Source: Oceanispirochaeta sp.
Lineage (GTDB): Bacteria > Spirochaetota > Spirochaetia > DSM-2461
Reading direction: 5' to 3'
Assembly: GCA_963663385.2 (NCBI GenBank)
Contig: CAXXXD010000002.1
Span: forward strand, 1,664,001-1,728,000
Length of the DNA: 64,000 nucleotides
Below, in pieces: positions 3,153-23,448 of this stretch. The position numbers and the translations under genes are program-made. The stretch's first letter is position 1; the number at the start of each line of letters is the position of its first letter. A model generated the notes under the pieces. That model did not search any database. It worked only from the letters and a program-made list of their open reading frames with translations, and was not told where the DNA came from.

Positions 3153-3244
3153 GTATAACGCCGATTTCTGCTGATTGCCGTATATGGCGGAGTTATTGCG
3201 AACAGCAAGAACTGTGACATAGGCAATTCAGTAGCAAATCTTTG
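3153..3244 (-). other. attC site 1 (98 bp when rejoined with 9831-9836), split by intron copy 1
   Basis: Bottom (+) strand GTATAAC-gcc-GATTTCTGCTGATTGCC...GGCAAT[T]CAGTAG[C]AAATC-ttt-G|TTATAT: R box, spacer, L box and two extrahelical bases. Confidence 0.88.
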
Positions 3245-3850
3245 GTACGCCCGACATGGCTGTACGCTAATGAGGTGAAAGTCCTCTACAGGTGCCCACG
3301 TATAGTGAACATGCTATACCAACTGTTAGCTGAAGGCAAGGGCATTTCCGCGAGGGAATGTCTGGAGGAAGCCGGAATGCAAAACCGGGAGCCCATGTAC
3401 AAGAATGTGATAGAAGGCTCAGTTCCAGAGGCGAGTCAGCCAATGATGACGATGCCCCGTGGGTATGGAATAGGGTAAATCACAGGGTTGTCCGGGGACA
3501 GTGTACAGTCTTATTCGGGGAGATCTGTCTGCGGGGCGGTAATGTGTTCTTTTAAACTGAGAATCCGGTAGGGAACCGGAAAACCAATCCCCGGCTTTTC
3601 AGAGGGTGACACTCTGGAAATGAGCAAGATTATCTTGAGTACAAATAAGTCGTCACAGGTTTAAAAGCACGGTATAGCATCAACGGGAGCAATCTCGTTG
3701 ATTAGCAGGCAGAAGTCAGCAGAAGGCATAGTAACCAACGCCCGGAGTAATGTCCGGTTCACGGTGAAGGCCTGAACATTTCACAAGGAGGAGCCTTATG
3801 GTTCTCAAAGGAACAATTTTAGCACTGGCCGAAATAACTTTTGGCGAATT

Positions 3851-5044
3851 ATGGAGAAACCAGCCTTGAACGATTCTATGATGGATTTGATTTTATCATC
3901 TGAAAACATGCGTAAGGCCTGGAAACAGGTCAAACGCAATGGCGGCAGTCCGGGAGTCAATGGCATGACTATTGAGAAATTTCCGGAATATCTACGCAGA
4001 AGATGGAGTAAAATCAAGCAAGCTTTGCTTTTGGGGTACTATGTACCCTCTCCGGTGCTCAGGGTGGAAATCCCCAAGAGATCCGGAGGTATGCGAATGC
4101 TGGGTATTCCCACTATTTTAGACAGGGTTATCCAACAGGCTATTTCACAGGTTTTGAATCCTCTATTCGATTCGGATTTTTCGGAAAGCAGTTTTGGATT
4201 CAGGCCGGGAAGATCGGCTCACGGAGCAGTACGACAGGTAAATACCTATGTTAAATCGGGATACAAGTATGCAGTTGATCTGGACTTGGAAAAGTTCTTT
4301 GATACGGTAAATCACGATATTCTGATGCATTGTGTGGCTAAGAAAGTCCGGGACAAATCAGTCCTGAAATTGATTGGCCGCTACCTGAGAGCCGGTATTA
4401 TGGACAAGGAGGGGATTAAAATCCCTACTGAAATCGGGACTCCTCAAGGAGGCCCGTTATCACCTCTACTTTCCAATATCCTTCTTGATAATTTCGATAA
4501 GGAGTTGGAACGGAGAAACCTGTGCTTTGCACGTTACGCAGATGATGCATTAATTGTATCAAAACGCCTGTGTGATGGAAAAGCTATATTGACTGAAATA
4601 AGTGATTATCTCAGTCGCAGGTTAAAATTGGTTGTAAACCAGAAGAAAAGCAAGGTGTGTAAAATCTCCGAATGCAGTTTTCTGGGATTCACTTTCAAGG
4701 GTAAGAAAATCCGATGGACTGAATCATCCTTTCGGGAGTTTCAATATCAGTTAAAGCATTTGACAAGACGGTCTTGGGGGGTATCAATGGAATATCGATT
4801 CCGGAAACTTAACGAGTATATCCGGGGGTGGATGAACTATTATGGTATTTCCCAATATTACAGACCTCTACAATCAATTGATGAATGGCTGAGAAGAAGA
4901 ATCCGTATGTGCTACTGGAAACAGTGGCGTTACCCCAGAACAAAAGTCAGGAAACTGATGGAGCTGGGTATTCCGAAAGATTTTGCCATTATGACAGGAG
5001 CAAGTAGTAAGTCCTACTGGCATCTGTCAAAAGGCTATGCGTAA
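3851..5044 (+). pseudogene. ltrA: Group II intron reverse transcriptase/maturase, C-terminally truncated by IS66 (last 29 aa displaced to ~9638-9728)
   Basis: 397 aa versus 426 aa in the intact copies; PQGGPLSP and YADD motifs; the stop codon comes from the IS66 end. Confidence 0.9.
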
Positions 5045-5087
5045 GCGGTAATTCTTCCCACATTGACAGCATTTTAGGACTGATGGA

Positions 5088-6650
5088 TCAGATTGCAATA
5101 TCTTCAGCAGTTAAGTTATAGGGAAGTAATTTTTCATAATCACTCTGTTTTTCACAGCAGGGCAATTCCCGGAAGATAAAGTACAAGTAAGCATAAACTG
5201 GAAGATTGTTCATCTTCGCAGATTCAACGAGACTGTACAGAATTGCCGATGATTCAGCACCTTTCGGGCTTCCGGCAAAAAGCCAGTTTTTTCTCCCGAT
5301 TACGAAGGGTCTGATTGCATTTTCAGCGCTATTGTTCGAAGGAGTCAAAACAGGATTTTTCAGATATAGAACCAACTGCTCCCAGTTGCTCAATGTATAC
5401 TTCATCGCCTTACCGAACTCTAAAGAAGGAGGTACTTGAGGATAAAGCTTCGTCAGTTTTTTCTGTAACTTATCTAGTATCGGTTCTGCTCTATTTTGTC
5501 GCTGTTTATGAAACCCTTTTAGCGAATAATTATCCCGTAATGATTCCAGTTCAAACAGATCCTTTATCAGGTCGAGAATTTGCTTTGCTTCTGCATCTTT
5601 TTTCTTGGTTGATTCCCAATATTGGAAGAACTTTCTTCTGGCATGGGCCCAGCATAAGACATGCTTTATATCTCCATCAACTTTTTTTCGGGCAGTATGG
5701 TAGGCCTCAAAATCATCAGTTTGAACCCAGCCAGAGTAATTTTCCAAGAAATCCAACGGAATTGCATGGGATCGGCCTTGCTCATACTGAAATATGACAC
5801 ATTTTTTATCGGGATCTCCTCTGAGAAAGACCCACATCCATGATTTATCTGAAGCTTTTCGTTTCGGTTCCTTTAGAACCTGAACTCTCGTCTCATCGGC
5901 ATTAATAATGGAACCGGATTTAATGTTTTCTTTCAGCAAATCATATAGAGGCTTACATGCCGTTGCCGATTTTATCGTAAGATTGCTCAATGTCGCCCGG
6001 GGGATCGGTATGCCTATCTGGTTTAACCGTTTTGATTGCCTGTAGAAAGGAAGAGCGAACTCAAACTTTTCGCTTATACTCCAAGCGAGCAGGCTTTCAT
6101 CGGCAATACTGCCCGCGACCAGATGCTTTGCTCCTTCTGCGGTCTGTACAGCAGCTTCATCAAGAGTCGTCCCTTCACAATTCTTGCAGGAGTACTTTTT
6201 TCTACGTTCCTGAATAACAACGACTTTTGACGGAATAATTTTTGCTCTCTCGGAAACATCTTCACCGATACAGGTCTTTTCTGTTCCGCAGGCACAGATC
6301 TTATCTTTATCCGGAATATCATATTCCACGATCTCTCTCGGCAGATCTGCCGGCAGAGGTTTCCGGCCGGATTTTTTAATATTTTTCTTGTAGGAACCGA
6401 CCTCAACCGTTTCAATAACATTTTTCTCCTGCTCTTCATCATTCTGAGCAAAAGCACTATCTTCCGCTTCATTGAAGAGAGAAGCTTGTTTCTTATCTTC
6501 GGCAGTTATCTTCTCTGATTTTGTTCCAAAGTGCAGGAGGTTCAGTTTTGCTACTTGCTCCTGGAGAATGGCATTAAGTCTTTTCAGTTCAGCAATTTCT
6601 ATTTTTTGTGCATCAAGTTGTTCTCTTAAATGCTGTTCTTCATTCTCCAT
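5088..6650 (-). CDS. tnpC: IS66 transposase TnpC
   Basis: Leucine-zipper N-terminus, zinc finger, ADET, CWAHARRKF and SNNSAENAIRPFVIGRKNWLF motifs. Confidence 0.95.
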   Translation of the reverse strand: MENEEQHLREQLDAQKIEIAELKRLNAILQEQVAKLNLLHFGTKSEKITAEDKKQASLFNEAEDSAFAQNDEEQEKNVIETVEVGSYKKNIKKSGRKPLPADLPREIVEYDIPDKDKICACGTEKTCIGEDVSERAKIIPSKVVVIQERRKKYSCKNCEGTTLDEAAVQTAEGAKHLVAGSIADESLLAWSISEKFEFALPFYRQSKRLNQIGIPIPRATLSNLTIKSATACKPLYDLLKENIKSGSIINADETRVQVLKEPKRKASDKSWMWVFLRGDPDKKCVIFQYEQGRSHAIPLDFLENYSGWVQTDDFEAYHTARKKVDGDIKHVLCWAHARRKFFQYWESTKKKDAEAKQILDLIKDLFELESLRDNYSLKGFHKQRQNRAEPILDKLQKKLTKLYPQVPPSLEFGKAMKYTLSNWEQLVLYLKNPVLTPSNNSAENAIRPFVIGRKNWLFAGSPKGAESSAILYSLVESAKMNNLPVYAYLYFIFRELPCCEKQSDYEKLLPYNLTAEDIAI

Positions 6651-6826
6651 ACGGGGAATTCTATCAAAGTTTCTATAATTATAAAATCTCTAAATACGGG
6701 AATGTGAGCAACGGTGCTAGAGTTCCTACATTCAGCGGCGAAAAAGTTCCGCTTTTACTGACATAAAAAGGGGCAAATATCCTAAAGTAGAGATTACCAC
6801 ACCTACTACAAAAGGAACCTGCCCCT

Positions 6827-8110
6827 ATGTGTCAAAAGGAAGATCGCATGCATGTAGCACGCATCATGGCCAACGAAGGCCATACTCAAAAGTATATCGC
6901 TGAGTATCTTGGTGTCAGCGACCGGATGGTAAGGAAATACCTGAATCCGGACTTCAGAACCCGTCCCAGGAAATCCCGGGAAAGCATCCTTAAACCATTC
7001 TACCCCATAATAGAAGATACCTTGGAAAATGATCCATACTTCAACCTCGTTTATCTTCATGAGAGACTACAAAACTCCGGTTATTCTGGAAAAATGACAA
7101 TCCTACGTGACTATGCCCGGAAGTACAGGAAGAAACTGATTGAGAAAGCAGTAATCCGCTTTGAAACAGAGCCGGGAAGACAGGCCCAAGTTGACTGGAA
7201 AGAATGCGGAAAAATGGAGATTGATGGCAAACTTCAGAAAGTATATGCATTTGTCATGCTGCTGGGATATAGTAGGATCCCGTTTGTCCTTTTCTCCTTG
7301 GATATGACCTCGCCGACATTGCTCCAAGCCCATCTGATGGCATTCCGGTTCTTCGGTGCTGTTCCGAAGGAAATTCTTTACGACAACATGAGAACAGCCT
7401 GGTACAACAACGGCGGTGTCTGGCACGTGAACTCAAAGCTCCTGGCCTTTGCTTCAGCCTGTGGTTTCACTCCTCTTCGCTGCCAAGTTCGTAGACCGCA
7501 AACTAAGGGAAAGGTAGAGCGTTTTATCGGTTACCTGGGCCACAACTTCTTGATCCGTGAAGAAGCAATGAAGAGCCGCTCAATAAACGATTTAAACCTG
7601 ACTGTCTCCAAATGGATCAAAACAGTAGTGGAACAGCAGATGAGCCAATTTAAACAGACTCGAAAAGAGAGATTTGAGTACGAAAGGCAGTTTATGAACC
7701 CTTGGAACCCTGAGGCAGCTCCAGATGTAAGGCTGGTTAAAGAACTGCTTGTCTCCAGAGAAGGGTTTATTCGTTTTGAATCAAACAAGTACAGCATTCC
7801 CGCGGACTTCATAGGACAAGTTGCGACACTGAAAGTAGATACGCTGGCAAGAACTGCCGCTATCTTCATTGATGGGGCCCCTGTTAGAACCTTCAAGCTT
7901 CTGACAAAAGGTGCGAAATTAGAATCTATCCGAAAGATTGATACCGACTCACTGGTTAAACGCTGGAAGAAAGAGAATCGCATGACAAAAAGGAATGTCG
8001 TTGCCAGTGTCCCGGAAATAAAGAATACTCCCAGGTCATCATTGATGCATACAGAGGTTGATACACGCCATCCTGAAAGCTACGACAAGCTTATGGGGGT
8101 AACAGCATGA
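6827..8110 (+). CDS. istA: IS21 transposase IstA
   Basis: HTH; RFETEPGRQAQVDW, LYDNM and PQTKGKVER DDE motifs. Confidence 0.95.
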   Translation: MCQKEDRMHVARIMANEGHTQKYIAEYLGVSDRMVRKYLNPDFRTRPRKSRESILKPFYPIIEDTLENDPYFNLVYLHERLQNSGYSGKMTILRDYARKYRKKLIEKAVIRFETEPGRQAQVDWKECGKMEIDGKLQKVYAFVMLLGYSRIPFVLFSLDMTSPTLLQAHLMAFRFFGAVPKEILYDNMRTAWYNNGGVWHVNSKLLAFASACGFTPLRCQVRRPQTKGKVERFIGYLGHNFLIREEAMKSRSINDLNLTVSKWIKTVVEQQMSQFKQTRKERFEYERQFMNPWNPEAAPDVRLVKELLVSREGFIRFESNKYSIPADFIGQVATLKVDTLARTAAIFIDGAPVRTFKLLTKGAKLESIRKIDTDSLVKRWKKENRMTKRNVVASVPEIKNTPRSSLMHTEVDTRHPESYDKLMGVTA

Positions 8111-8871
8111 ATGTACTGCAGGAGACCATAGAGATCAGGATGAACGACTTAGGGCTGGAGTTTATGGCGGCGGGGTTGGAGAGCTTCCTTGAAGCTCAAT
8201 CTCACACAGAAAACACTCTCTCTCAGTCAATTGCAGACCTATTGGAACTGGAGTACGTTCCCCGTAAGGAGAGAGCTGCAAAAAGCCGTCTGAAGCTCTC
8301 TGGAATGCCATCGATCAAGCTATTAGAGGACTTCGACCTATCCTGGTTGAAGGGAGGATTGACCGCTGCTCAACTGGCAGAGTTTTCTAGTCTGGCTTTC
8401 ATTGAAAGAAAGGAAAATCTAGTACTGATGGGGCCAAGTGGATTGGGTAAAACCCATTTGATGCTAGCTCTGGCTCATAAAGCCTGTCAGAATGGTTATA
8501 CTGTATGGTATACAAGCTGCATCGATCTGATGGAGAATCTGACCCATGCCCGGGAGCAGGGGCGGTTGAAGCGACGGCTTACCTGGCTTAGAAAGCCTCA
8601 TCTCATCCTTATCGATGAAGTTGGCTACGAGAACCTGACGAAAGAACAGGCCAACTTGTTTTTTCAGATTGTAAACACCCGCTATGAACAAGGCAGTATG
8701 ATCATCACCACAAACAAGTCTTTCGGTCGTTGGGCTGAGATTCTGGATGATGAAGCCATTGCGACAGCGACTATAGACAGGCTCCTTCACCATGCACATG
8801 TCCTGAGTCTTAAAGGGGATTCATACCGGATGAAAGACCGGTTGAAAATAGGGATCGTTGATCCTGTTTAA
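8107..8871 (+). CDS. istB: IS21 helper ATPase IstB
   Basis: GPSGLGKT Walker A, LIDEVGY Walker B, IDRLLHH; ATGA overlap with istA. Confidence 0.95.
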   Translation: MNVLQETIEIRMNDLGLEFMAAGLESFLEAQSHTENTLSQSIADLLELEYVPRKERAAKSRLKLSGMPSIKLLEDFDLSWLKGGLTAAQLAEFSSLAFIERKENLVLMGPSGLGKTHLMLALAHKACQNGYTVWYTSCIDLMENLTHAREQGRLKRRLTWLRKPHLILIDEVGYENLTKEQANLFFQIVNTRYEQGSMIITTNKSFGRWAEILDDEAIATATIDRLLHHAHVLSLKGDSYRMKDRLKIGIVDPV

Positions 8872-9271
8872 TTTTACCCAGAAGCGGAACTTTTAAACCG
8901 TTGAAATGAGGAACTTTTTCACCGCTGTTGACACGGGAATATGATAATTTTTTATGCGCTTTGAAAAAGTCTATTCCCGTCAGGAGCATTTTCAATTCAT
9001 CCATGCTGATCTCTTTAGCATCTTCATCTGTTTCCGGCCAGGGATATCTGTTCTCTTCCAGTCTCTTCTGCCAGAGACAAAAACCGGTATTATCCCAGTA
9101 GACAATTTTCAGAAGTTTTCTCTGCCGGTTACAAAAGAGGAATAGCGATTTGGCGAATAAATCATGATTCATTTCATTCTGGATAAACAGAGATAATCCG
9201 TTGATCGCTTTTCTTAAGTCTGTCGTGCCGGGTCTCAGAAAGATCCGGTATTCGTTCAGGTCAACAAACAT
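8810..9271 (-). CDS. tnpB: IS66 accessory protein TnpB (native end replaced by read-through into IS21)
   Basis: TDLRKAINGL, FLFCNRQRKLLKIVYWD and KRLE motifs; the native end ...KKLSYSRI* is restored when IS21 is removed. Confidence 0.9.
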   Translation of the reverse strand: MFVDLNEYRIFLRPGTTDLRKAINGLSLFIQNEMNHDLFAKSLFLFCNRQRKLLKIVYWDNTGFCLWQKRLEENRYPWPETDEDAKEISMDELKMLLTGIDFFKAHKKLSYSRVNSGEKVPHFNGLKVPLLGKIKQDQRSLFSTGLSSGMNPL

Positions 9272-9567
9272 TACAACTCTCTCAGAATCTTCAGAAGATC
9301 TATCAGGGATTGCCTGTTATAACCTGATGCCAGATCCAATGAGAAATCCTTGTATCTGAGTATCATTGTGGGGTTTTGTGGCTGTAATACCGGGGCTTTC
9401 TGTTTGATTTCAATAAAACTGCTTTTCTTTAATTTTTTTCGATTCTTGTAGAAAGATGTATAGTGAACTCCTTTATCTGCGCAGAACTCAGAAATTGTTT
9501 TCCCGCTCTGTTTTTGTTCTTCGATTAATTCAGGCCAATTCCAGTTGGTCATATTAGGTTCCTCCAT
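9271..9567 (-). CDS. tnpA: IS66 accessory protein TnpA
   Basis: W..LIEEQKQSGKTISEFC HTH pattern; first ORF of the IS66. Confidence 0.85.
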   Translation of the reverse strand: MEEPNMTNWNWPELIEEQKQSGKTISEFCADKGVHYTSFYKNRKKLKKSSFIEIKQKAPVLQPQNPTMILRYKDFSLDLASGYNRQSLIDLLKILREL

Positions 9568-9844
9568 GATTTTTCATGGAGTATATAATCATTTCGAAAT
9601 CACGCAAGATGGAGAGAATTACCGCTTACGGCTATGCAACCAATGCCGCTATGTCCAATAAATGGTTGGAAGAGCAAGGATTGATCAATATTAAGGCCCT
9701 CTGGTGTAAAATCCAGGGCTACACATGATCAAATTATAGTTTCGTTTGCTCCATGGAGTGAACCGCCCTGTGCGGACCCGCATGCAGGGTGGTGTGGGGG
9801 CTGGAGGTTAAAAGCCTCCGGCTACCCGATTTATATATATCGCA

Positions 9845-11128
9845 TTATTCATCAGCAAATAAATCTTTGAGTCGTCTTGATCTTTTAGGATGTCTTAATC
9901 TTCTAAAAGCCTTAGATTCTAAGAATTCAAAATCATCAATATCAAGATCAAGTTTTTCACAAATTTCCTCATCAGAAATGAAATTAATATTTGTAATATA
10001 TTTTGAAAGTATTATTTCTTTTTCAACATCTGGCAATGTTTCTATGCTCTCTTGCATCAAGTCATAGATTTCCTTTTCACTGTATTTGGTTTTTAGTCTA
10101 GGATTTCGTTCCCCAAATATACGACCAATCAATGTTACCACTAGTTCAATATTTCTTTCATTATTTAATGATTTTAAGAATTCAATTTCCTTAATAGTTG
10201 ATTGTACTTGAAGTTCATCGTTTTTATCTATTTTCATTATTTTGTAATTCTGTGCATACTTTATGAATTCATCTATGCTATACATATAAAAAAGTAGATT
10301 GGTTTCATCAGAAAATTCATTTATCAACTCTGGCCTAGGACCTAATATTTTTTTTCCATCTTTCAACCACCAATCTTCTTTAGTTTCATTTGTGATAAAT
10401 ATGATTGATCTTTTTTCTTTTTTTGCTTTTTCTAGAATTTGATTCCAAATAATTAAATCACCAAATTTCTTTAGATTCTCTTTTTCTTTACTATCCATAT
10501 AACCAGGAGGAATACTATTCTGATATCTAAAATCCCCAATTTTCTCTATTTTCTGAAGTACATCATAAGAATATTTTTCACCAATGCAGTTATCAAAAAT
10601 ATCTGAGACTTTTTCCAAAATAGAATCTGAAACAAGTAATTTAGTGTAATAATTTCTGTATCTCTTTAACTGAATAAAATCATTATATTTGTAAATTGAT
10701 TCAATTGATTCATTTACAGCCTCTAATTCATATTCAAGTTCATTCAGAATATTACTTGTATTAGTAATAAATGGATGGCGCTTTTCCATTTTTGGATTTT
10801 GTCTAAACTTATTCAATTCCTCAATAAATTTCTTTTTAAATGATTCTTTCAAGACACTTTCACTCTCTTCAAATCGCTCGTAAATTCTAATCTGTTCTTT
10901 GATTACTGCAATACGATTATCATGATATTCATGAGCGACTTGATAAGGTAACCATAGTCTATTACTTTTTATTGAGTTGAGTATTTGAATAACATTCTGA
11001 CTTGATTCTTTAGAATATCTATATAAATCTAATAGAACATTTGTATCAAAAACAAAAATACAGTTATTCCATAATTCACTGAATATTTTCTGGTCAAAAT
11101 CATAATATCCTTTTAGAACTTTTCTCAT
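9845..11128 (-). CDS. Cassette gene: PIN-like nuclease domain fused to a C-terminal sigma70 region-4-like domain
   Basis: FVFDTNVLLDLY, PPGYMD, GDLIIW and ITNETKEDWW (PIN_8-like); the C-terminus ESKAFRRLRHPKRSRRLKDLF resembles the RpoD C-terminus. Confidence 0.8.
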   Translation of the reverse strand: MRKVLKGYYDFDQKIFSELWNNCIFVFDTNVLLDLYRYSKESSQNVIQILNSIKSNRLWLPYQVAHEYHDNRIAVIKEQIRIYERFEESESVLKESFKKKFIEELNKFRQNPKMEKRHPFITNTSNILNELEYELEAVNESIESIYKYNDFIQLKRYRNYYTKLLVSDSILEKVSDIFDNCIGEKYSYDVLQKIEKIGDFRYQNSIPPGYMDSKEKENLKKFGDLIIWNQILEKAKKEKRSIIFITNETKEDWWLKDGKKILGPRPELINEFSDETNLLFYMYSIDEFIKYAQNYKIMKIDKNDELQVQSTIKEIEFLKSLNNERNIELVVTLIGRIFGERNPRLKTKYSEKEIYDLMQESIETLPDVEKEIILSKYITNINFISDEEICEKLDLDIDDFEFLESKAFRRLRHPKRSRRLKDLFADE

Positions 11129-11172
11129 CTAATCCTCAATTTTATAAATTTATGCTCTTTAACCTTGTGTCG

Positions 11173-11276
11173 ATATAACATCGATTTAACAAGCGGCCAG
11201 AAAGCTGGCGGATTCTGTGCCTGCGAAGCAGAAAAGCACAGAATGTGAAAGCCTGGACGACTTGTTCAAATCTTTG
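11173..11276 (-). other. attC site 2 (110 bp when rejoined with 13266-13271), split by intron copy 2
   Basis: ATATAAC-atc-GATTT-AACAAG-CG...CG[A]CTTGTT[C]AAATC-ttt-G|TTATAC. Confidence 0.88.
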
Positions 11277-13265: not shown

Positions 13266-13754
13266 TTATACAGTGTTTATTTTTTTCACAATCCTTACTT
13301 CTGATTCAACTAATAATTCTGCTTCAAAATTTGTATCTATTGTATTAATACCTTGCCAATATTGATGAGCTTGTAACTCAAGAGCTGGTAATACTGGTCT
13401 GCTATGAGGTATTCTTTCGTATAGTTTCATTGAACATCTGTGTATCATTTTATCTGAGATAATTTCAACTTCGTATAAATGACAACCTTCTCTATTGTCT
13501 TTTTTTAAGAAATCAGTTGATTCTTCTATTGTTTCAAATAAAAATATGGATTTTAATCTACTAGGATGCTCTGGATAATGTTTTAATCGAATTAATTCAA
13601 AGGTTTGTTCTTGAAATAGCCTCCAAATCATAGCCCTTTCATTATCATTGCCATATAAAATGTAATTCTCATTTATTATTTTACCCATGCTTCCTGGTTG
13701 GAGAATATCACCAGCGGATAATTTTCTTTCATTTAGATGATAGTATTTCTTCAA
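13266..13754 (-). CDS. Cassette gene: DUF2441-like / ADP-ribosyltransferase-fold protein
   Basis: YYH...L..GDIL.PG start (Arr-like), FELIRLKHYPEHPSRLKSIFLF, YW and a terminal ELLV glutamate; stop codon lies within the attC R'' box. Confidence 0.6.
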   Translation of the reverse strand: MKKYYHLNERKLSAGDILQPGSMGKIINENYILYGNDNERAMIWRLFQEQTFELIRLKHYPEHPSRLKSIFLFETIEESTDFLKKDNREGCHLYEVEIISDKMIHRCSMKLYERIPHSRPVLPALELQAHQYWQGINTIDTNFEAELLVESEVRIVKKINTV

Positions 13755-13756
13755 CG

Positions 13757-14476
13757 TTAAAATCCTTCTTTAGGAATACAAGCATTGATGAAGAGTTTCC
13801 CAAAATCTGTTAAAACCCACCGACTTCTTCTACGTGTGCCTGTTTGAGTGTTGCTTTCACGTATTGGTTTTTCATCATATACTGGCCAATTGACTAAGCT
13901 TAAAGAGTCTAAATGGTTATAATAAAGATCTAAATTGTCAGGAAATATCAATGACTCTAATGGTGCTTCTTTTTTTTCAAATCTACGATTTATAAATCGA
14001 TTATTTATTCTGTCCATATCAAATACGTCTACGAACTCAAACTCAACCTTATTTAGTTCATATAGAAGAATTGCTTCATCATGTGATAGTTGTGAAATTA
14101 TATGAACAAATGATGGATGAGCTTTATCTAATTCATCTTTATTTACGGATTTAAGTAATAACTCTTCAAACATTTTCCATAAAGGTGAATCCTCATTAAG
14201 ATATTGCATTTTTTCAATTGCTGGCCCTACTATCTCAGGTGATGCAGATATTTGTTTATCTTTGGGAATTTTGCTAATTCTATTTTTTACAAATTTTTCG
14301 AATCGATCTTGAAAGGCTGAGGTAATCTGTAGTGGTGCAAGTAACAATCTTGCAGTCTTTACAACATCTAATCCTATTTTGCTAATTTCTGTAAGTGGTT
14401 TTGATGCTACATCCTTATATGTTTCTAGTAAAACCTCAGGTGGTATGTTTTTCATTATTTCTTCTGGATCAGACAT
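13757..14476 (-). CDS. Cassette gene: Abi-alpha (DUF4393)-family protein
   Basis: YKDVASKP, EIVGPAIE, MFEELL, AHPSFVHIISQLSHDEA and LTDFGKLFINAC motifs. Confidence 0.8.
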   Translation of the reverse strand: MSDPEEIMKNIPPEVLLETYKDVASKPLTEISKIGLDVVKTARLLLAPLQITSAFQDRFEKFVKNRISKIPKDKQISASPEIVGPAIEKMQYLNEDSPLWKMFEELLLKSVNKDELDKAHPSFVHIISQLSHDEAILLYELNKVEFEFVDVFDMDRINNRFINRRFEKKEAPLESLIFPDNLDLYYNHLDSLSLVNWPVYDEKPIRESNTQTGTRRRSRWVLTDFGKLFINACIPKEGF

Positions 14477-14497
14477 TTTTTACCCCCATTTTCATCT

Positions 14498-14609
14498 GTA
14501 TAACGCCCGCATCAGCTGCAATTTTGTCCCGAAGGGTTGGCGTAGTTTTTGAAATGAGCGAAGCGACTTCAAAAACTATGACAAAAAAATTGTCAGTTGC
14601 ATGCGATTG
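14498..14609 (-). other. attC site 3 (118 bp when rejoined with 16599-16604), split by intron copy 3
   Basis: GTATAAC-gcc-CGCAT-CAGCTG-CAATTTT...AAAATTG[T]CAGTTG[C]ATGCG-att-G|TTATGT. Confidence 0.88.
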
Positions 14610-16598
14610 GTACGCCCGACATGGCTGTACGCTAATGAGGTGAAAGTCCTCTACAGGTGCCCACGTATAGTGAACATGCTATACCAACTGTTAGCTGAAG
14701 GCAAGGGCATTTCCGCGAGGGAATGTCTGGAGGAAGCCGGAATGCAAAACCGGGAGCCCATGTACAAGAATGTGATAGAAGGCTCAGTTCCAGAGGCGAG
14801 TCAGCCAATGATGACGATGCCCCGTGGGTATGGAATAGGGTAAATCACAGGGTTGTCCGGGGACAGTGTACAGTCTTATTCGGGGAGATCTGTCTGCGGG
14901 GCGGTAATGTGTTCTTTTAAACTGAGAATCCGGTAGGGAACCGGAAAACCAATCCCCGGCTTTTCAGAGGGTGACACTCTGGAAATGAGCAAGATTATCT
15001 TGAGTACAAATAAGTCGTCACAGGTTTAAAAGCACGGTATAGCATCAACGGGAGCAATCTCGTTGATTAGCAGGCAGAAGTCAGCAGAAGGCATAGTAAC
15101 CAACGCCCGGAGTAATGTCCGGTTCACGGTGAAGGCCTGAACATTTCACAAGGAGGAGCCTTATGGTTCTCAAAGGAACAATTTTAGCACTGGCCGAAAT
15201 AACTTTTGGCGAATTATGGAGAAACCAGCCTTGAACGATTCTATGATGGATTTGATTTTATCATCTGAAAACATGCGTAAGGCCTGGAAACAGGTCAAAC
15301 GCAATGGCGGCAGTCCGGGAGTCAATGGCATGACTATTGAGAAATTTCCGGAATATCTACGCAGAAGATGGAGTAAAATCAAGCAAGCTTTGCTTTTGGG
15401 GTACTATGTACCCTCTCCGGTGCTCAGGGTGGAAATCCCCAAGAGATCCGGAGGTATGCGAATGCTGGGTATTCCCACTATTTTAGACAGGGTTATCCAA
15501 CAGGCTATTTCACAGGTTTTGAATCCTCTATTCGATTCGGATTTTTCGGAAAGCAGTTTTGGATTCAGGCCGGGAAGATCGGCTCACGGAGCAGTACGAC
15601 AGGTAAATACCTATGTTAAATCGGGATACAAGTATGCAGTTGATCTGGACTTGGAAAAGTTCTTTGATACGGTAAATCACGATATTCTGATGCATTGTGT
15701 GGCTAAGAAAGTCCGGGACAAATCAGTCCTGAAATTGATTGGCCGCTACCTGAGAGCCGGTATTATGGACAAGGAGGGGATTAAAATCCCTACTGAAATC
15801 GGGACTCCTCAAGGAGGCCCGTTATCACCTCTACTTTCCAATATCCTTCTTGATAATTTCGATAAGGAGTTGGAACGGAGAAACCTGTGCTTTGCACGTT
15901 ACGCAGATGATGCATTAATTGTATCAAAACGCCTGTGTGATGGAAAAGCTATATTGACTGAAATAAGTGATTATCTCAGTCGCAGGTTAAAATTGGTTGT
16001 AAACCAGAAGAAAAGCAAGGTGTGTAAAATCTCCGAATGCAGTTTTCTGGGATTCACTTTCAAGGGTAAGAAAATCCGATGGACTGAATCATCCTTTCGG
16101 GAGTTTCAATATCAGTTAAAGCATTTGACAAGACGGTCTTGGGGGGTATCAATGGAATATCGATTCCGGAAACTTAACGAGTATATCCGGGGGTGGATGA
16201 ACTATTATGGTATTTCCCAATATTACAGACCTCTACAATCAATTGATGAATGGCTGAGAAGAAGAATCCGTATGTGCTACTGGAAACAGTGGCGTTACCC
16301 CAGAACAAAAGTCAGGAAACTGATGGAGCTGGGTATTCCGAAAGATTTTGCCATTATGACAGGAGCAAGTAGTAAGTCCTACTGGCATCTGTCAAAAGGC
16401 TATGCAACCAATGCCGCTATGTCCAATAAATGGTTGGAAGAGCAAGGATTGATCAATATTAAGGCCCTCTGGTGTAAAATCCAGGGCTACACATGATCAA
16501 ATTATAGTTTCGTTTGCTCCATGGAGTGAACCGCCCTGTGCGGACCCGCATGCAGGGTGGTGTGGGGGCTGGAGGTTAAAAGCCTCCGGCTACCCGAT
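14610..16598 (+). mobile_element. Group IIC-attC intron copy 3 (1989 bp, intact)
   Basis: Same ends, length and RT translation as copy 2. Confidence 0.95.
15216..16496 (+). CDS. ltrA: Group II intron reverse transcriptase/maturase
   Basis: Translation identical to 11883-13163. Confidence 0.95.
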   Translation: MEKPALNDSMMDLILSSENMRKAWKQVKRNGGSPGVNGMTIEKFPEYLRRRWSKIKQALLLGYYVPSPVLRVEIPKRSGGMRMLGIPTILDRVIQQAISQVLNPLFDSDFSESSFGFRPGRSAHGAVRQVNTYVKSGYKYAVDLDLEKFFDTVNHDILMHCVAKKVRDKSVLKLIGRYLRAGIMDKEGIKIPTEIGTPQGGPLSPLLSNILLDNFDKELERRNLCFARYADDALIVSKRLCDGKAILTEISDYLSRRLKLVVNQKKSKVCKISECSFLGFTFKGKKIRWTESSFREFQYQLKHLTRRSWGVSMEYRFRKLNEYIRGWMNYYGISQYYRPLQSIDEWLRRRIRMCYWKQWRYPRTKVRKLMELGIPKDFAIMTGASSKSYWHLSKGYATNAAMSNKWLEEQGLINIKALWCKIQGYT

Positions 16599-16624
16599 TT
16601 ATGTGTCCTCGTTTTGATACATAT

Positions 16625-18295
16625 TCATAATAGATTGATCATCACATGATGTAAATTTACTTCCATTCCATTTCTATTATGAACTGTTGTTATGTTCCGA
16701 ACATCCGCATATATTTTCTCATCTATAATTTGATCTGTCCGCTCATAAACGAAATTATATTCTTCTATGTAAGTACAATATTTCTCCCATAATTTATCAA
16801 AATATACAGCATTTGAATAAATCAATATAATATTTTGCTTTAATCCAGTTGAGTCGTAATTAAATATTTTATCAATATGTAAATTGATATATGTTTTATC
16901 AAGAGAATCAAGATTTAAAGCCTCTATTATTGTGAATGGACGCTTCTTCTTATCATAAACAAGTATATCAATCTCGCCTGCATTCTTTCCAGTTGCTGAT
17001 TTACTCCATCTTGTCTGATCTTTTACATGATATTTAGATGTTTCAAGCAGAGTGGCAATAAATGTATTTCTATCATCTTCAGAAAAATTACCTCTATAAT
17101 TTCTATTCCCTTGCATTTTAATGCAGGCAGAAATTAAACTATCAAAAATATTTTGAAATGAATATTCTTGCAATTCTTCAAAACACTTTAATATACTTAC
17201 AGGATCATCTGGATCTATTTTTGATATGACAATATCTCTTCTACTTTGTGGAATATAATGAAACAATTCTGACATTTTGCTTTTTATACTCTCATTCTCA
17301 ACTTTTTTTTTTAGATTTTTATCTCTAATTATATTGGTCATATTCTGTAAAAATTGTAATTTTTCTTCTTCTGAAATACATTCCTTTTTTAATAACTCTA
17401 TTTTCGATAGCTGGGATTGAAAATTACAAGAGAAGAAAGGAACAATAAACTTAGTATTGATAATATTCTTAAATTGTTTAGAGATTGTACTCTTATTCAA
17501 TCGTTCGTTTAATAATTCGTTTTCAATTTCAGAATAATAGAGAAATAGCTCATCCATATCTGATCTAAAATTCAACCAATCATCTGGTTTTTTTGAATAT
17601 ATTTTTGCCACAGAAAAAAGAATCCTGTAAAATCCAAAATAGAAAGAACTGATTAGATTATTGATTGAAAGAGATACAATTTTAAAGATTAATTCAGGGA
17701 TTTTGCTCAAGTATTGATCTACTAAAGGTGTTTGATGTTTTACTAAATTTAATAATACAGCTGTTACAAGACTGAAAAACTCTGAATCTACTCTATTTTC
17801 AATAGTGTTTTTTGATTGAAGAAAAAAGTCATTTGATCTTTCAATATTCTGTATGAAATTAATTGTATCTAAAGAGAAAAAACTCTTTTGCATAAAGATA
17901 AGACCAAGATTATACAGAGCCTCTGAAGATATCTCTAAATCACTATTAATCGATGAAGTTTCATAAACTGACTCAATCTCTGAAGATTCTTTTTCGTAGA
18001 ATAAATGTAAGATTTTTAGTCTCTGAACCTCGAGAAAGGCGTCATTTTCAGATTGCCAATCATCTAATAGTAATGATAGTATTTGTCTTTCTTTAATATT
18101 ACCAAGCAAGAAATGATCAAAAAGAAGAGTTAGTGCTTCTTTTTTGACATATGAGTTTTCAGATCTATGTAAGATAATACCTTTGATAAATATAAAGAAA
18201 TCGCTTTGAGTTTTATTGCAAAATATATTATCATCTCTTAAATAGTTGAGTTTTTCATTCATTCCTTTTTTGTTAAATCTCTCTAGATTAGACAT
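16625..18295 (-). CDS. Cassette gene: alpha-helical N-terminus plus C-terminal PD-(D/E)xK-like nuclease
   Basis: C-terminal EDDRN...GEIDILV...IIEAL restriction-endonuclease-like pattern. Confidence 0.6.
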   Translation of the reverse strand: MSNLERFNKKGMNEKLNYLRDDNIFCNKTQSDFFIFIKGIILHRSENSYVKKEALTLLFDHFLLGNIKERQILSLLLDDWQSENDAFLEVQRLKILHLFYEKESSEIESVYETSSINSDLEISSEALYNLGLIFMQKSFFSLDTINFIQNIERSNDFFLQSKNTIENRVDSEFFSLVTAVLLNLVKHQTPLVDQYLSKIPELIFKIVSLSINNLISSFYFGFYRILFSVAKIYSKKPDDWLNFRSDMDELFLYYSEIENELLNERLNKSTISKQFKNIINTKFIVPFFSCNFQSQLSKIELLKKECISEEEKLQFLQNMTNIIRDKNLKKKVENESIKSKMSELFHYIPQSRRDIVISKIDPDDPVSILKCFEELQEYSFQNIFDSLISACIKMQGNRNYRGNFSEDDRNTFIATLLETSKYHVKDQTRWSKSATGKNAGEIDILVYDKKKRPFTIIEALNLDSLDKTYINLHIDKIFNYDSTGLKQNIILIYSNAVYFDKLWEKYCTYIEEYNFVYERTDQIIDEKIYADVRNITTVHNRNGMEVNLHHVMINLL

Positions 18296-20381
18296 TAGAA
18301 TATAAACTCATTTTCTGGTGTATTTAGTTCGTTATCAACAATATTTGAGAGCTTCCTCTCTGCTGTTCCTATTAATATTTGTAAATTATCACCAAAACGA
18401 CTATGAATACTTTTTAATACGCGAGATAATCCACTAGATATTTATCATCAGCTTCTTCTTTCCCGGGACTATCGATTATCAAAAAACGCGTATGTCTACC
18501 AAAATTTCTTTCAATATCTAATTGAATTAAACTCAAATAAAATGCAAGTTTAGCTCGTAGCTGTTCTCCTTCAGCTATATCATTAAATGAGATGAAATCA
18601 CCATCTTGATTATAAAGTATATCAAATTTATCATTTATTGAAATTTCAGAGATTGAAGTTAATCCCAATTCGTTGATCTCATTAAGCATTATAGATTTCA
18701 ATTTATCAAGAATATCTTTACCTTCTTTAAAACGTATGATGTTCAATCTATTAATAGCATCTTCTATAACAGTAATTTGACTATCAAAATCAATTTCTTT
18801 GTTCTCTACAACTTTTTGATTTCCCTCAATTTGAAATTGAATTACTGCCTTTTTTGCTAATAACTTATCTCGTAGATCTCTTGTAGGTGATATGGATTCT
18901 ATTTCTTCTTTCGTTTTAGTTAATTCTTCATTTAATTTATCAAGAACTGTTGAATTTTGTCTCATTACATTTATATTATCTAGTTCGGAATATAAGTCTT
19001 TCTCTTTATTCTTATATTCACCATATTCTATTTCTAAACTTTGAAGTTCTTTAGTAATATTACTATTTAGATTCTTCAAGTCTTCGATTTTGTTCTGAAT
19101 ATTATCAATTTGAAAGTCAGATTCGGAATTTAACTCTTCACTGCATAATGAACACTTACGGTCGTGAACATTTCCTTTAGCTTTATCTTTGCTAATTTTG
19201 TGATTACAGCTAGGACATTGAGTAATATTGAGGTTTGAAAAAAAGACTCCTATATCACTGTATTCAGTTAAGTCATTTATTCTTTTAATATTTTTATTGA
19301 TTTCTCCATTTAGTCTCGATATTTTCTGCTCTAAACTTTTTAACTCATTATTGGTTTTTTTTAATATTAAGTATTTATCATTATATAGTTTCTCATTTTC
19401 TGCTGTCTTATTGTTCTCATTTTTTATTTGAACAATTAGAGATTCACTTTTATCCAATAAGGGTTTTAATGTTATATCAGATTCTGATTCTATTCTTGAT
19501 AACTCTTGTTCAACAGTCGCTAATTGATTTTTCAGTTCAACAAAATCTTTATGTTGTGTATCATTTTTTTCTAAATATTGCTGTTTAGATTTTTCATTGA
19601 GAATGAAATCCTTACGAATACAAAGTTGATTGATGGGGTAAGTAAAATGTAAACCGAGAAGCATTTGAAATACTTTTCTATCTTGACCTCCAAAAATGAG
19701 GCTTGAAGAATCTTTGGACTCAAGAAAAATAGATTTAAAATAAGTTCTCCAACTTGTTCCTACTTCCAGTAACTCATTACTGTCTTTTGCAGAGTTTTTT
19801 TGTGTCCATTTTAATGAATAATATGAAAATTGTTGAAAGAAAAAATCCTCAATCTTCTTTTGATATTCGATTTCACTCTTTGCATTGAAAATTTCTTTAT
19901 CTTTATTCTGTTCTAGTTCATTAATATTTTTATAGTGACCAAATAATAATGATGCACTAAGTCTTCCTTCAAGATTGAGGTATGCTGTATATTTTCTTTC
20001 CCCTATAGAAAAACAAAGAAGTAAATCATCAATCCACTTTTTTATATTTTGCTTAATTGAATTACTACCAGTTAAAATATATTTAATCATTTTAAAAATG
20101 CTAGATTTTCCTTTTAGGTTATCAGCAATAATGATATTTATTCCATTTCCAAACTCTTGATTATAGTCAATAATATTACCTGTATAAATATGTCTATCAG
20201 AAGTTCTCTTTTGGCCTTTAAAATGGATATAATCAATTTTAATATTTTTTCCTGTTGATATAGGAGTATCCTTTAAATAAGATTCTTCAAGACTAAGAAG
20301 CTCTTCTATTTCATTTAGAGTATATTTATCCTTATAATCATCATATAACTCATTTAAAAATTTCTTGAAATCAAAAATCAT
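18295..20381 (-). pseudogene. SMC/Rad50-like ABC ATPase (LmuB/ABC-3C-like) with a 1-nt frameshift near 18434
   Basis: ADNLKGKSS Walker A, coiled coils with CPSC/CSLC, IAEGEQ signature, FLIIDSP Walker B. The ORF stops at 18414, but the shifted frame continues GLSRVLK...LQILIGTA...EFIF* to a TAATG overlap with the next gene. Confidence 0.8.
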
Positions 20382-21031
20382 AAAGGCTCTCCATAAATAT
20401 TCCTAAATTTATTTAATACTTGATCTTCTATACTACCGATATAGTCTTTATACGAAGTATTTTTGTATTCTGAAATCTTGTATTGTGAAATTTTTAATTC
20501 AGTTCCAGATAAATTTCCAAAGTATTTTTTTATTAATGCACATCTATTAGCGTACCATTGAAAACTTTTATGATCTTCAAAATCATCTTTCATTTTATTA
20601 ACTGCTATTTCAGTTATATAGTATTCCTTTTCAATTGTACGCATAGATGTGCTTTTTTTACTATGAAATTCAATAAACTCAATACCAACAAGAAAAGCTA
20701 TAATATCATCAATATCCTCATAAGCTCCAAAGAAAAATCGTTCCATTTCAAGCCTTCTAATTTGAGGTTCATTGTTCTTAAAAATTGATTGTACTTCTTC
20801 TTTTATTGTCTTTTTGTCTTCAATATTTTTTTCAGCAATTTCAAGTAATTCATAAGCCAAATAATCAGGATTTCGTAATAAAAAATCGATTTTCTGAATT
20901 TTCACTTCGCTCTTAAAAAGTTTCTTTCTTGAAGGAAATTGTGAATCAGAAAAGTTCTCTGAAAAAAAATATAAAATGAGAAAGATCCTCAACTTATCTT
21001 TATAATCTCTTATTATTTCATTTTCAGTCAA
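20378..21031 (-). CDS. Cassette gene: small winged-helix-like protein (ABC-3C middle component / Panacea-like pattern)
   Basis: KIQKIDFLLR...RFFFGAYE...YYIT pattern; AGGAG 7 nt before TTG at 21031 (the track ATG at 21070 lies inside the attC R' box); ATGA overlap with the ATPase. Confidence 0.55.
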   Translation of the reverse strand: MTENEIIRDYKDKLRIFLILYFFSENFSDSQFPSRKKLFKSEVKIQKIDFLLRNPDYLAYELLEIAEKNIEDKKTIKEEVQSIFKNNEPQIRRLEMERFFFGAYEDIDDIIAFLVGIEFIEFHSKKSTSMRTIEKEYYITEIAVNKMKDDFEDHKSFQWYANRCALIKKYFGNLSGTELKISQYKISEYKNTSYKDYIGSIEDQVLNKFRNIYGEPL

Positions 21032-21066
21032 ATTTATTCTCCTGTAATTATTGATACCTTTTGTAC

Positions 21067-21235
21067 ACATAACGCCAAAATATGCTGCGGAGCGGCCTGG
21101 CCGAAGGACAGGTACAGGCGCTTTTCTTGCAGACTTATTTTAAACAGTAATTTGTTTTTAAGAAAGAACTATTTATCAGCATACTGTATCTCTGCAAGAA
21201 ATGTGATCTGTAGCGACGACAGTATAATTTTCTTG
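21067..21235 (-). other. attC site 4 (175 bp when rejoined with 23225-23230), split by intron copy 4
   Basis: ACATAAC-gcc-AAAAT-ATGCTG-CG...TTTCTTGCAGA...TCTGCAAGAAA...CG[A]CAGTAT[A]ATTTT-ctt-G|TTATGT. Confidence 0.82.
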
Positions 21236-23224
21236 GTACGCCCGACATGGCTGTACGCTAATGAGGTGAAAGTCCTCTACAGGTGCCCACGTATAGTGAA
21301 CATGCTATACCAACTGTTAGCTGAAGGCAAGGGCATTTCCGCGAGGGAATGTCTGGAGGAAGCCGGAATGCAAAACCGGGAGCCCATGTACAAGAATGTG
21401 ATAGAAGGCTCAGTTCCAGAGGCGAGTCAGCCAATGATGACGATGCCCCGTGGGTATGGAATAGGGTAAATCACAGGGTTGTCCGGGGACAGTGTACAGT
21501 CTTATTCGGGGAGATCTGTCTGCGGGGCGGTAATGTGTTCTTTTAAACTGAGAATCCGGTAGGGAACCGGAAAACCAATCCCCGGCTTTTCAGAGGGTGA
21601 CACTCTGGAAATGAGCAAGATTATCTTGAGTACAAATAAGTCGTCACAGGTTTAAAAGCACGGTATAGCATCAACGGGAGCAATCTCGTTGATTAGCAGG
21701 CAGAAGTCAGCAGAAGGCATAGTAACCAACGCCCGGAGTAATGTCCGGTTCACGGTGAAGGCCTGAACATTTCACAAGGAGGAGCCTTATGGTTCTCAAA
21801 GGAACAATTTTAGCACTGGCCGAAATAACTTTTGGCGAATTATGGAGAAACCAGCCTTGAACGATTCTATGATGGATTTGATTTTATCATCTGAAAACAT
21901 GCGTAAGGCCTGGAAACAGGTCAAACGCAATGGCGGCAGTCCGGGAGTCAATGGCATGACTATTGAGAAATTTCCGGAATATCTACGCAGAAGATGGAGT
22001 AAAATCAAGCAAGCTTTGCTTTTGGGGTACTATGTACCCTCTCCGGTGCTCAGGGTGGAAATCCCCAAGAGATCCGGAGGTATGCGAATGCTGGGTATTC
22101 CCACTATTTTAGACAGGGTTATCCAACAGGCTATTTCACAGGTTTTGAATCCTCTATTCGATTCGGATTTTTCGGAAAGCAGTTTTGGATTCAGGCCGGG
22201 AAGATCGGCTCACGGAGCAGTACGACAGGTAAATACCTATGTTAAATCGGGATACAAGTATGCAGTTGATCTGGACTTGGAAAAGTTCTTTGATACGGTA
22301 AATCACGATATTCTGATGCATTGTGTGGCTAAGAAAGTCCGGGACAAATCAGTCCTGAAATTGATTGGCCGCTACCTGAGAGCCGGTATTATGGACAAGG
22401 AGGGGATTAAAATCCCTACTGAAATCGGGACTCCTCAAGGAGGCCCGTTATCACCTCTACTTTCCAATATCCTTCTTGATAATTTCGATAAGGAGTTGGA
22501 ACGGAGAAACCTGTGCTTTGCACGTTACGCAGATGATGCATTAATTGTATCAAAACGCCTGTGTGATGGAAAAGCTATATTGACTGAAATAAGTGATTAT
22601 CTCAGTCGCAGGTTAAAATTGGTTGTAAACCAGAAGAAAAGCAAGGTGTGTAAAATCTCCGAATGCAGTTTTCTGGGATTCACTTTCAAGGGTAAGAAAA
22701 TCCGATGGACTGAATCATCCTTTCGGGAGTTTCAATATCAGTTAAAGCATTTGACAAGACGGTCTTGGGGGGTATCAATGGAATATCGATTCCGGAAACT
22801 TAACGAGTATATCCGGGGGTGGATGAACTATTATGGTATTTCCCAATATTACAGACCTCTACAATCAATTGATGAATGGCTGAGAAGAAGAATCCGTATG
22901 TGCTACTGGAAACAGTGGCGTTACCCCAGAACAAAAGTCAGGAAACTGATGGAGCTGGGTATTCCGAAAGATTTTGCCATTATGACAGGAGCAAGTAGTA
23001 AGTCCTACTGGCATCTGTCAAAAGGCTATGCAACCAATGCCGCTATGTCCAATAAATGGTTGGAAGAGCAAGGATTGATCAATATTAAGGCCCTCTGGTG
23101 TAAAATCCAGGGCTACACATGATCAAATTATAGTTTCGTTTGCTCCATGGAGTGAACCGCCCTGTGCGGACCCGCATGCAGGGTGGTGTGGGGGCTGGAG
23201 GTTAAAAGCCTCCGGCTACCCGAT
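21236..23224 (+). mobile_element. Group IIC-attC intron copy 4 (1989 bp, intact)
   Basis: Same ends, length and RT translation as copy 2. Confidence 0.95.
21842..23122 (+). CDS. ltrA: Group II intron reverse transcriptase/maturase
   Basis: Translation identical to 11883-13163. Confidence 0.95.
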   Translation: MEKPALNDSMMDLILSSENMRKAWKQVKRNGGSPGVNGMTIEKFPEYLRRRWSKIKQALLLGYYVPSPVLRVEIPKRSGGMRMLGIPTILDRVIQQAISQVLNPLFDSDFSESSFGFRPGRSAHGAVRQVNTYVKSGYKYAVDLDLEKFFDTVNHDILMHCVAKKVRDKSVLKLIGRYLRAGIMDKEGIKIPTEIGTPQGGPLSPLLSNILLDNFDKELERRNLCFARYADDALIVSKRLCDGKAILTEISDYLSRRLKLVVNQKKSKVCKISECSFLGFTFKGKKIRWTESSFREFQYQLKHLTRRSWGVSMEYRFRKLNEYIRGWMNYYGISQYYRPLQSIDEWLRRRIRMCYWKQWRYPRTKVRKLMELGIPKDFAIMTGASSKSYWHLSKGYATNAAMSNKWLEEQGLINIKALWCKIQGYT

Positions 23225-23448
23225 TTATGTCTACAGCATTTTGTAAATCACCGATGCCATATCAGGCAAGAATATCTTAATAAACGTAGGTGAAGGCGAA
23301 TGCCCTTATTTCCACTTCTGCCAGCCGCAACCGGCGTCAAAGATTGATAATCAGTGTAGTGTGAGCATCAATCAACCCGTATCAAAACCCTAAAACCTAC
23401 TAAATCATCTGGCAATTATGAAAGAACCAGAAGTACAAAATGTGTTCG

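Follow-up and report, generated by a model that had tools for sequence, protein, structure and literature searches.

Why should every recombination site of a chromosomal integron be occupied by one and the same group II intron when look-alike attC sites elsewhere in the same cell are spared? This question is raised by a 64,000-nucleotide stretch of an Oceanispirochaeta sp. genome (the window, G000:C2:1664001-1728000), taken from an assembly of 5.3 Mb on four contigs (C1-C4); coordinates given without a prefix are window positions. The window holds the integrase-proximal end of a sedentary chromosomal integron (SCI) in a spirochaete, with a gene for an integron-type tyrosine recombinase (intI) and with cassettes that are bounded by attC sites, share one orientation and run divergently from intI. 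We explain the observations, with good confidence, by a retromobile intron of the IIC-attC lineage that has inserted in the R'' box of every attC of this SCI, whose cassettes are predicted to encode defence systems.

Four copies of one 1989-bp element lie within 3245-23224, all on the + strand and antisense to the cassettes, with starts 8032, 3333 and 6626 bp apart (Table 1). Their ends, GTACG...CCCGAT, set the length at exactly 1989 bp, and Rfam group II intron models exceed the gathering threshold in every copy (12 of 12; RF02001 at 114.3 bits, RF01998 at 62.2 and RF00029, which covers domains D5/D6, at 48). The encoded reverse transcriptase (RT; 426 aa) scores 401 bits on TIGR04416 and has a YADD motif at residue 229; its Pfam matches are RVT_1 and GIIM only, with no endonuclease domain among them. 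A preliminary description, made from the letters of the window, had reported no differences between the copies and identical RT translations. Alignment bears this out for copies 2-4, which are identical at every base (100%, no mismatches, no gaps), but not for copy 1, which is split by a 4589-bp insertion at 5040/9630 that leaves an RT frame of 397 aa instead of 426. What was inserted is an IS66-family element, bounded by perfect terminal inverted repeats (GTAAGCGGTAATTC...) and an 8-bp target duplication (GGCTATGC), and an IS21-family element is nested in it.

All four junctions in the window read ...TTG|intron|TTAT[A/G] on the attC bottom strand, inside R''. After removal of the introns in silico, each of the four sites folded in our own fold test as a canonical attC bottom-strand hairpin (-23.0 to -29.5 kcal/mol; -29.1 kcal/mol for the attC of cassette 1), with an R-box stem of 6-8 bp, unpaired spacers of 2 nt, an L-box stem that carries bulged bases, and a variable terminal structure. 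In cassette sense, the four R' boxes are GTTATAC, GTTATAT, GTTATAC and GTTATG. The 5'-exon-side lengths are 92, 104, 112 and 168 nt, and 45-67% of columns are shared in a gap-permissive global alignment; attC lengths span 100-178 nt. Intron-free paralogues of the fourth attC elsewhere in the genome read ...TTCTTGTTATGTC... / ...CTTGTTATGTC..., which fixes the insertion point without ambiguity and with no target duplication. Two statements of the preliminary description are thereby upheld, namely that each attC is cut at TTG|TTAT in the bottom-strand R'' by an antisense intron and that the attCs differ in their central sequence. Genome-wide, six of the eight full-length intron sites are attC bottom strands with the intron antisense to the cassettes. 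A hairpin followed by TTG|T precedes seven of the eight insertions, while the eighth, inside an IS66, has a weak hairpin (-5.4 kcal/mol).

Sequence comparison assigns the element to the known IIC-attC lineage (Quiroga, Centron, Leon, Roy), in agreement with the class proposed at the outset. Its first 15 and last 16 nt are identical to those of an intron in a Klebsiella pneumoniae class 1 integron, where that intron lies between arr-2 and aac(6')-Ib, antisense to both, with the junction GT|TAT; the two RTs are 48.5% identical. We compared 80 related loci, one genome per species. RT identity was highest for spirochaete metagenome-assembled genomes (MAGs; 79-81%), followed by Desulfobacterota and Lentisphaerae (54-63%, full-length matches) and Firmicutes (40-46%). 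In 35 of these loci a motif search recovered a whole intron whose length is plausible; the 5' exons of Desulfobacterota introns end in TTGT, TGGT or similar and are followed by T, and Firmicutes introns follow hairpins with T-runs. In a quick maximum-likelihood tree of 25 RTs, with Shimodaira-Hasegawa-like approximate likelihood ratio (SH-aLRT) support and without bootstraps, the studied RT forms a clade with a congener RT and a spirochaete MAG RT (SH-aLRT 100), nested in a 15-RT clade (SH-aLRT 96) that also holds the class 1 integron and Desulfobacterota introns. Left out of the 30 candidates were L098, L107 and L139 (frames below 300 aa) as well as L093 and L110, and the label TTGT|T on MAG loci in the tree denotes the junction motif only. 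Terminator-targeting introns of Firmicutes fall outside the 15-RT clade. Group IIC introns of this terminator-targeting, B.h.I1 type, reportedly described by Robart, Seo and Zimmerly in 2007, share with the studied element a stem-loop and a short intron-binding site 1 (IBS1) as target, and one copy here, at C2:97525, sits in just such a position; they differ in that most copies here are in attC and in the position of their RTs (40-46% identity to the sampled Firmicutes introns) outside the attC clade.

The excerpts of PMC3001079 and PMC7923331 considered here describe IIC-attC introns (S.ma.I2, E.c.I7, Kl.pn.I1, Sh.ba.I2, G.s.I1) that resemble the element in a class C RT without an endonuclease domain, a length of ~2 kb, insertion in the attC bottom strand within R'' antisense to the cassettes, and the possibility of insertion after a terminator. 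The ends GTACGCCCGACATGG...CCTCCGGCTACCCGAT are common to the element and the K. pneumoniae class 1 integron intron and are close to the Sh.ba.I2 primer given in part of PMC3001079. The element differs from these introns in its spirochaete host, in the modest RT identity to the class 1 integron intron and in its junction: the published insertion consensus, as stated in a passage of PMC7923331, is TTGT/T, whereas the junction here, TTG|TTAT, lies one base upstream. The G|TTAT insertion is common to the spirochaete subclade and amounts to a shift of register within R'', not of target.

Extending the copy count to the rest of the array and the genome gave seven uninterrupted full-length copies, the interrupted copy 1, a 5'-truncated copy left of the window and several fragments. 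Six of the seven uninterrupted copies are within 0.1% of one another, and four of those six lie within 30 kb. The copy at C2:97525, which is 100% identical, follows a rho-independent terminator (GC-poor hairpin, T-run, TTTG|TACA). At C2:1655000-1661227, 7-9 kb left of the window, an IS66 with an 8-bp duplication breaks the 5'-truncated intron at position 1634, and this IS66 in turn holds a full-length, 100%-identical intron in sense orientation between a tnpA-like gene and tnpB, at GTTTG|TTGAC and behind a weak upstream hairpin. Because identical copies sit after a terminator and nested inside an IS66, very recent intron movement is indicated: the present copies probably arose recently, from an element that would still be, or would very lately have been, mobile. 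The intI-linked array also holds three remnants that are 82-89% identical to the present intron and stem from older relatives of it, and together with the diverged copies in the congener described below they show that the lineage has long been resident in the array. A recent burst saturating the array, as suggested initially, therefore describes the present copies well, given their identity and the fresh terminator and IS66 insertions, but not a single burst into a virgin array, in view of the remnants and of a congener whose orthologous array is full of introns 74-88% identical to this one. The genome has more than ten IS66 copies. An intron remnant at C3:747712-750412 carries an IS66 at intron position 1789-1796, exactly as copy 1 does; either a single IS66 event was followed by movement of segments between clusters, or IS66 has a preferred target in the intron.

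Saturation is local: the intI-linked array is full and the genome is not, so that the initial picture of a saturated integron holds for the former and fails for attCs elsewhere. Throughout the array (C2:1651864-1687455) eight intron 3' ends were counted, and after every one of them comes TT[ACT][CT]R. No empty attC was found in it by three scans, whose recall on 11 known empty sites was 4/11 for the strict and 7/11 for the relaxed version; the strict scan covered C2:1620000-1690000, and the relaxed one was added because of the low recall of the strict one. Two kinds of candidate were rejected within the array, namely + strand TTGTTAT motifs (three of three lacking a closing stem) and a 45-nt TATAAC...GTTATG element at C2:1652598 that folds at only -1.8 kcal/mol. 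By contrast, three integrase-less attC clusters on C1, C3 and C4 contain 11 empty attCs of canonical fold with an intact TTG|TTAT, and three occupied ones; five of the 11 belong to the family of the fourth attC. A further candidate, C1:40665-40822, failed refolding and was dropped, and attC-like 5' halves without a matching R'' at C1:33577 and C3:755304 were counted neither as empty nor as occupied. These two halves and three more (C3:734548, C4:1180654, C4:1191853) start with CAGTCTCAAC in place of a TATAAC-type R' box, which points to repeated joining to one and the same following cassette or element. A Fisher test of 8/0 versus 3/12 (p = 3.4e-4) still included the dropped site, and we give it no weight because attC sites are not independent. 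A literature search, which did not reach the key IIC-attC papers of 2008-2009, returned no account of a fully occupied array.

The overrun array persists across species in this genus. In a congener (G007), an intI at C1:1063760 (390 bits) adjoins an array of ~30 kb with at least ten introns or intron fragments, all on the + strand, of several subtypes and with the identity to the studied intron given above. GC skew is positive in all ten sampled 20-kb stretches flanking this array, and a - strand attC cluster of the same genome (C1:1.29-1.31 Mb) contains no intron ends. The association of intron and array is thus old, and the present copies alone recent, as judged from sequence divergence.

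Replication offers one way to account for the contrast between the array and the clusters. On C2, GC skew is positive in 18 of 19 100-kb bins, the sole non-positive bin being the one with the array, and the flanks of the array have skews of +0.049 and +0.037. Because the skew is positive, the + strand, which bears the attC bottom strands and the introns, is taken as the lagging-strand template. In the C3 and C4 clusters the bottom strand is the - strand in surroundings of positive skew, and in the C1 cluster it is the + strand in surroundings of negative skew, where the evidence is weak. By GC skew, then, the intI-linked array is the only one in which the attC bottom strands belong to the lagging-strand template. 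Occupancy follows the same division, with 8/8 sites hit in this array and 3/14 in the clusters facing the opposite way, and the congener repeats the pattern. According to passages of the respective papers, group II introns without an endonuclease are primed at replication forks (PMC4424553) and attC bottom strands fold more readily when they are in the lagging-strand template (PMC5371416). The latter source, in the part used here, also reports that in 25 of 30 SCIs the bottom strands belong to the leading-strand template, the other five all being from Xanthomonas.

In the mechanism that we propose, the endonuclease-less intron would use its RT/maturase to recognise the folded bottom-strand attC hairpin and then TTG (putative IBS1) and T (putative IBS3), and would reverse-splice into the cassette-antisense strand, entering between G and TTAT. 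Local saturation could follow if single-stranded DNA of the lagging-strand template folds into the hairpins and the intron finds a primer there, and the integrase-less clusters, facing the opposite way, would remain mostly empty. Only TTAT[A/G] lies beyond each intron, so that the R box of an occupied attC should be unable to form; because the R box of a split attC cannot pair, IntI, judging by how it is known to recognise attCs, should be left without a substrate to bind or cleave and be unable to excise or shuffle the cassettes. Read-through from the cassette promoter (Pc) would be interrupted at each cassette. The 'frozen array' of the preliminary description is plausible in the sense that IntI would fail on split attCs, but a truly frozen array is unlikely, because the identical 2-kb direct repeats that flank each cassette open a RecA route, by which homologous recombination could delete, duplicate or exchange cassettes; the C3 remnant with IS66 at the intron position of copy 1 hints at such movement of segments between clusters. 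For known IIC-attC introns, parts of PMC3001079 describe insertion in the attC bottom strand antisense to cassettes, a block to transcription from Pc and outward promoters; S.ma.I2, for instance, blocks Pc transcription yet can drive the next cassette by an outward promoter. Our scan of the 5' part of the intron gave one weak sigma-70-like match (9/12, - strand, intron positions 385-412), near the P2out position of 387-415 reported in the same source; spirochaete promoters may differ.

Several points weigh against this reading. The skew is modest (~0.04), the left flank of the C2 array is positive in just 13 of 20 10-kb windows, the right flank of the C1 cluster is ambiguous (-0.012, 9 of 20 windows positive), and orientation is taken from GC skew. 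Our home-made attC scans could have missed an atypical empty attC in the array, and the attC sites are not independent, several of the empty ones being near-identical paralogues of one repeated cassette. In the congener, + strand clusters retain some attCs that are empty; of these, several have CATG at the end instead of TTG, but one has a proper TTG target, and orientation is therefore not sufficient. Outward promoter-like matches are no commoner than in shuffled sequence (5 versus 4.6). Failure of IntI on split sites, transcription and splicing of the intron, and recombination between copies are steps that this reading infers. On balance, we regard replication orientation as a tentative candidate for the main cause of local saturation, with somewhat less than an even chance of being right.

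Two other accounts, each of which we consider rather doubtful, would change how the array is understood. The contrast between array and clusters may have nothing to do with replication and reflect local hopping of the intron ribonucleoprotein, or empty clusters that are recent arrivals or duplications. Four of the five empty sites in the family of the fourth attC are 95-99% copies of a single repeated cassette and so may be of recent origin; IS66 and IS21 copies abound in the clusters, which points to frequent rearrangement; and most of the near-identical intron copies are closely spaced. Yet the two full-length copies in the other clusters are the most diverged (9 and 2 mismatches), which suggests longer exposure there, the identical copy at C2:97525 lies 1.5 Mb off the array, so that the intron is not bound to its neighbourhood, and the strand pattern recurs in the congener. 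Homogenisation, in turn, could be the source of the identity of the copies: introns would have filled the attCs in the distant past, and exchange between the 2-kb repeats, by gene conversion or unequal crossing-over, would keep the copies identical and spread one variant along the array. The congener array, already full of diverged introns of several subtypes, and the old remnants in the studied array fit this account, as does the C3 remnant if it reflects segments moved between clusters; and because the 3'-exon side holds just 5 nt of each attC, any exchange between copies would go unseen. A converted older copy, however, cannot be the source of the identical introns behind the C2:97525 terminator and inside the recent IS66, and the first cassette by attI, expected to be the newest arrival, is occupied too. 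Homogenisation and new retrohoming are not mutually exclusive.

That the array is an assembly artefact, with one or two real copies multiplied or misplaced during repeat resolution, is highly improbable, even though exact 2-kb repeats, a genome in four contigs and the abundance of IS66 are circumstances in which it could arise. Every copy has unique flanks on both sides. Contigs from two short-read runs, X1 and X2, probably of the source isolate, span the passage from the PIN cassette to 20 nt into the intron and from the last 24 nt of the intron into the Abi cassette, and also contain the 3' junction of copy 1 and the 5' junction of copy 3. Intron depth in these runs is 7.0x and 10.4x that of unique cassette sequence, which fits the seven full-length and two interrupted copies of the assembly, and no contig joins across an empty site or skips exactly 11277-13265, though contigs drop rare variants. 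These runs support the junctions and the copy number, not the cassette order. Run X4 has the same IS66-in-intron junction and the 3' junction of copy 3, and so comes from the same or a near-identical strain and is not independent; X5 covers the stretch partly.

The intron-split sites separate what appears, from sequence, to be a store of anti-phage defence systems (Lamassu, Abi-like, PIN and type III restriction-modification (R-M); Table 1). All cassette genes are on the - strand, divergent from intI, and the cassettes are large, up to 4.4 kb within the window and ~5.9 kb for the next one; beyond the window edge, cassette 5 continues into a type III restriction enzyme, followed by another intron-split attC. 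PADLOC identified all three Lamassu components in cassette 2 (LmuC, 1.3e-68; LmuB, 8.7e-135; LmuA, 9.2e-42), and the 118-nt gap between lmuB and lmuA (18296-18413) was ruled out as an internal attC, as it folds at merely -5.3 kcal/mol. In cassette 3, the stop codon falls within R''. As far as excerpts of PMC5371416 and PMC12614218 describe Vibrio-type SCIs with defence cassettes, these resemble the locus in a single intI divergent from a long array, additional integrase-less attC clusters and defence cassettes; the locus differs in having bottom strands that belong, by GC skew, to the lagging-strand template, which is the minority orientation, in its large cassettes and in the interruption of every attC.

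Table 1 Features of the window and copies of the repeated cassette in the genome
Feature	Position	Strand	Details
Cassette 5, start	1-3152	-	DUF3800 / PDC-M04A protein 2178-3032; type III R-M methylase from 2177 leftward
attC of cassette 4, intron 5'-exon side	3153-3244	-	TTATA remainder at 9831-9835
Intron copy 1	3245-9830	+	Split: 3245-5040 (intron positions 1-1796) and 9630-9830 (1789-1989); RT cut to 397 aa
IS66-family element in copy 1	5041-9629	-	tnpC 5088-6650, tnpB 8810-9271, orf 9271-9567
IS21-family element nested in that IS66	~6703-8933		istA 6827-8110, istB 8107-8871
Cassette 4: PIN_8-domain protein	9845-11128	-	Pfam PF18476, 3.1e-63
attC of cassette 3, intron 5'-exon side	11173-11276	-	TTATA remainder at 13266-13270
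Intron copy 2	11277-13265	+	1989 bp, intact; RT 11883-13163, 426 aa
Cassette 3	13266-14476	-	Abi_alpha / PDC-S47 protein 13757-14476; DUF2441 protein 13266-13754
attC of cassette 2, intron 5'-exon side	14498-14609	-	TTATG remainder at 16599-16603
Intron copy 3	14610-16598	+	1989 bp, intact; RT 15216-16496
Cassette 2: predicted Lamassu defence system	16625-21070	-	lmuC 20378-21070, lmuB 18414-20381, lmuA 16625-18295
attC of cassette 1, intron 5'-exon side	21068-21235	-	R', L', variable structure, L'', TTG; TTATG remainder at 23225-23229
Intron copy 4	21236-23224	+	1989 bp, intact; RT 21842-23122
Cassette 1 body	23225-23455	-	231 bp, without an open reading frame (ORF) above 45 aa
attI region	23449-23520	-	attI/cassette junction G|TTATATC (cassette sense) at 23449-23455
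intI (integron integrase)	23729-24955	+	408-aa ORF; TIGR02249; Pfam Phage_int_SAM_4 and Phage_integrase
ORF-less cassette copies	23225-23455 with 21068-21235; C1:37320-37744; C3:727912-728319; C3:730634-733022; C3:740154-742790; C4:1188327-1188742		

The integrase scores 380.6 bits on TIGR02249 (cut-off 265), with profile positions 2-313 of 315 matched, and is the sole match above the cut-off in the whole genome. The family match spans residues 93-404, which implies either an N-terminal extension of ~90 aa or a later start; in three relatives the match likewise sits in open frames of similar length (412-452 aa), so that the extension is possibly a conserved feature. An intI-like fragment at C4:1012702-1013010 (family positions 2-112, one stop codon) lies ~165 kb away from the attC cluster of C4 and may be what is left of a second integrase. 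The junction between attI and the first cassette was placed at the point, 23455, where the homology of this cassette to its five paralogues ends. Together with its attC of ~170 nt, the ORF-less cassette 1 forms a unit of ~398 bp, of which the genome has six copies, 95-100% identical; one is the cassette adjoining attI, an IS21 sits in one and the intron in two. This repeated cassette could be a promoter or a small RNA. Apart from the integron, the window contains an 18-bp tandem unit at 60524-61171, with ~36 copies, which are up to 98% identical when shifted against one another.

The usual picture of an integron is of an array kept fluid by its integrase, in which attC introns ride as rare passengers; in this genome and in that of a sister species, the intI-linked array is fully occupied. 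The kind of element is known. What is unusual is the full occupancy, its persistence across species of the genus, the one-base shift of the junction and the contrast, within one genome, with oppositely facing sites that are empty. Through this element, a lineage known chiefly from Proteobacteria gains a spirochaete branch whose insertion register is shifted. The natural contrast within one genome could be used to test how attC introns find single-stranded hairpins and whether the direction of replication protects most chromosomal integrons, and the system could show what becomes of stored defence genes after the integrase has lost the ability to move them. A bolder proposal, which we put forward as unlikely but worth stating, is that the way an array faces the replication fork decides whether attC introns can overrun it, and that the introns may have assumed part of the work of the integron. 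If generally true, such an orientation rule would explain why attC introns are rare in most integrons, given the leading-strand-template orientation of 25 of 30 SCIs in the cited part of PMC5371416, and would add a second selective reason for keeping bottom strands on that template. The introns, in turn, may supply the 2-kb homology for RecA-driven exchange of cassettes, and perhaps a promoter for each large defence cassette.

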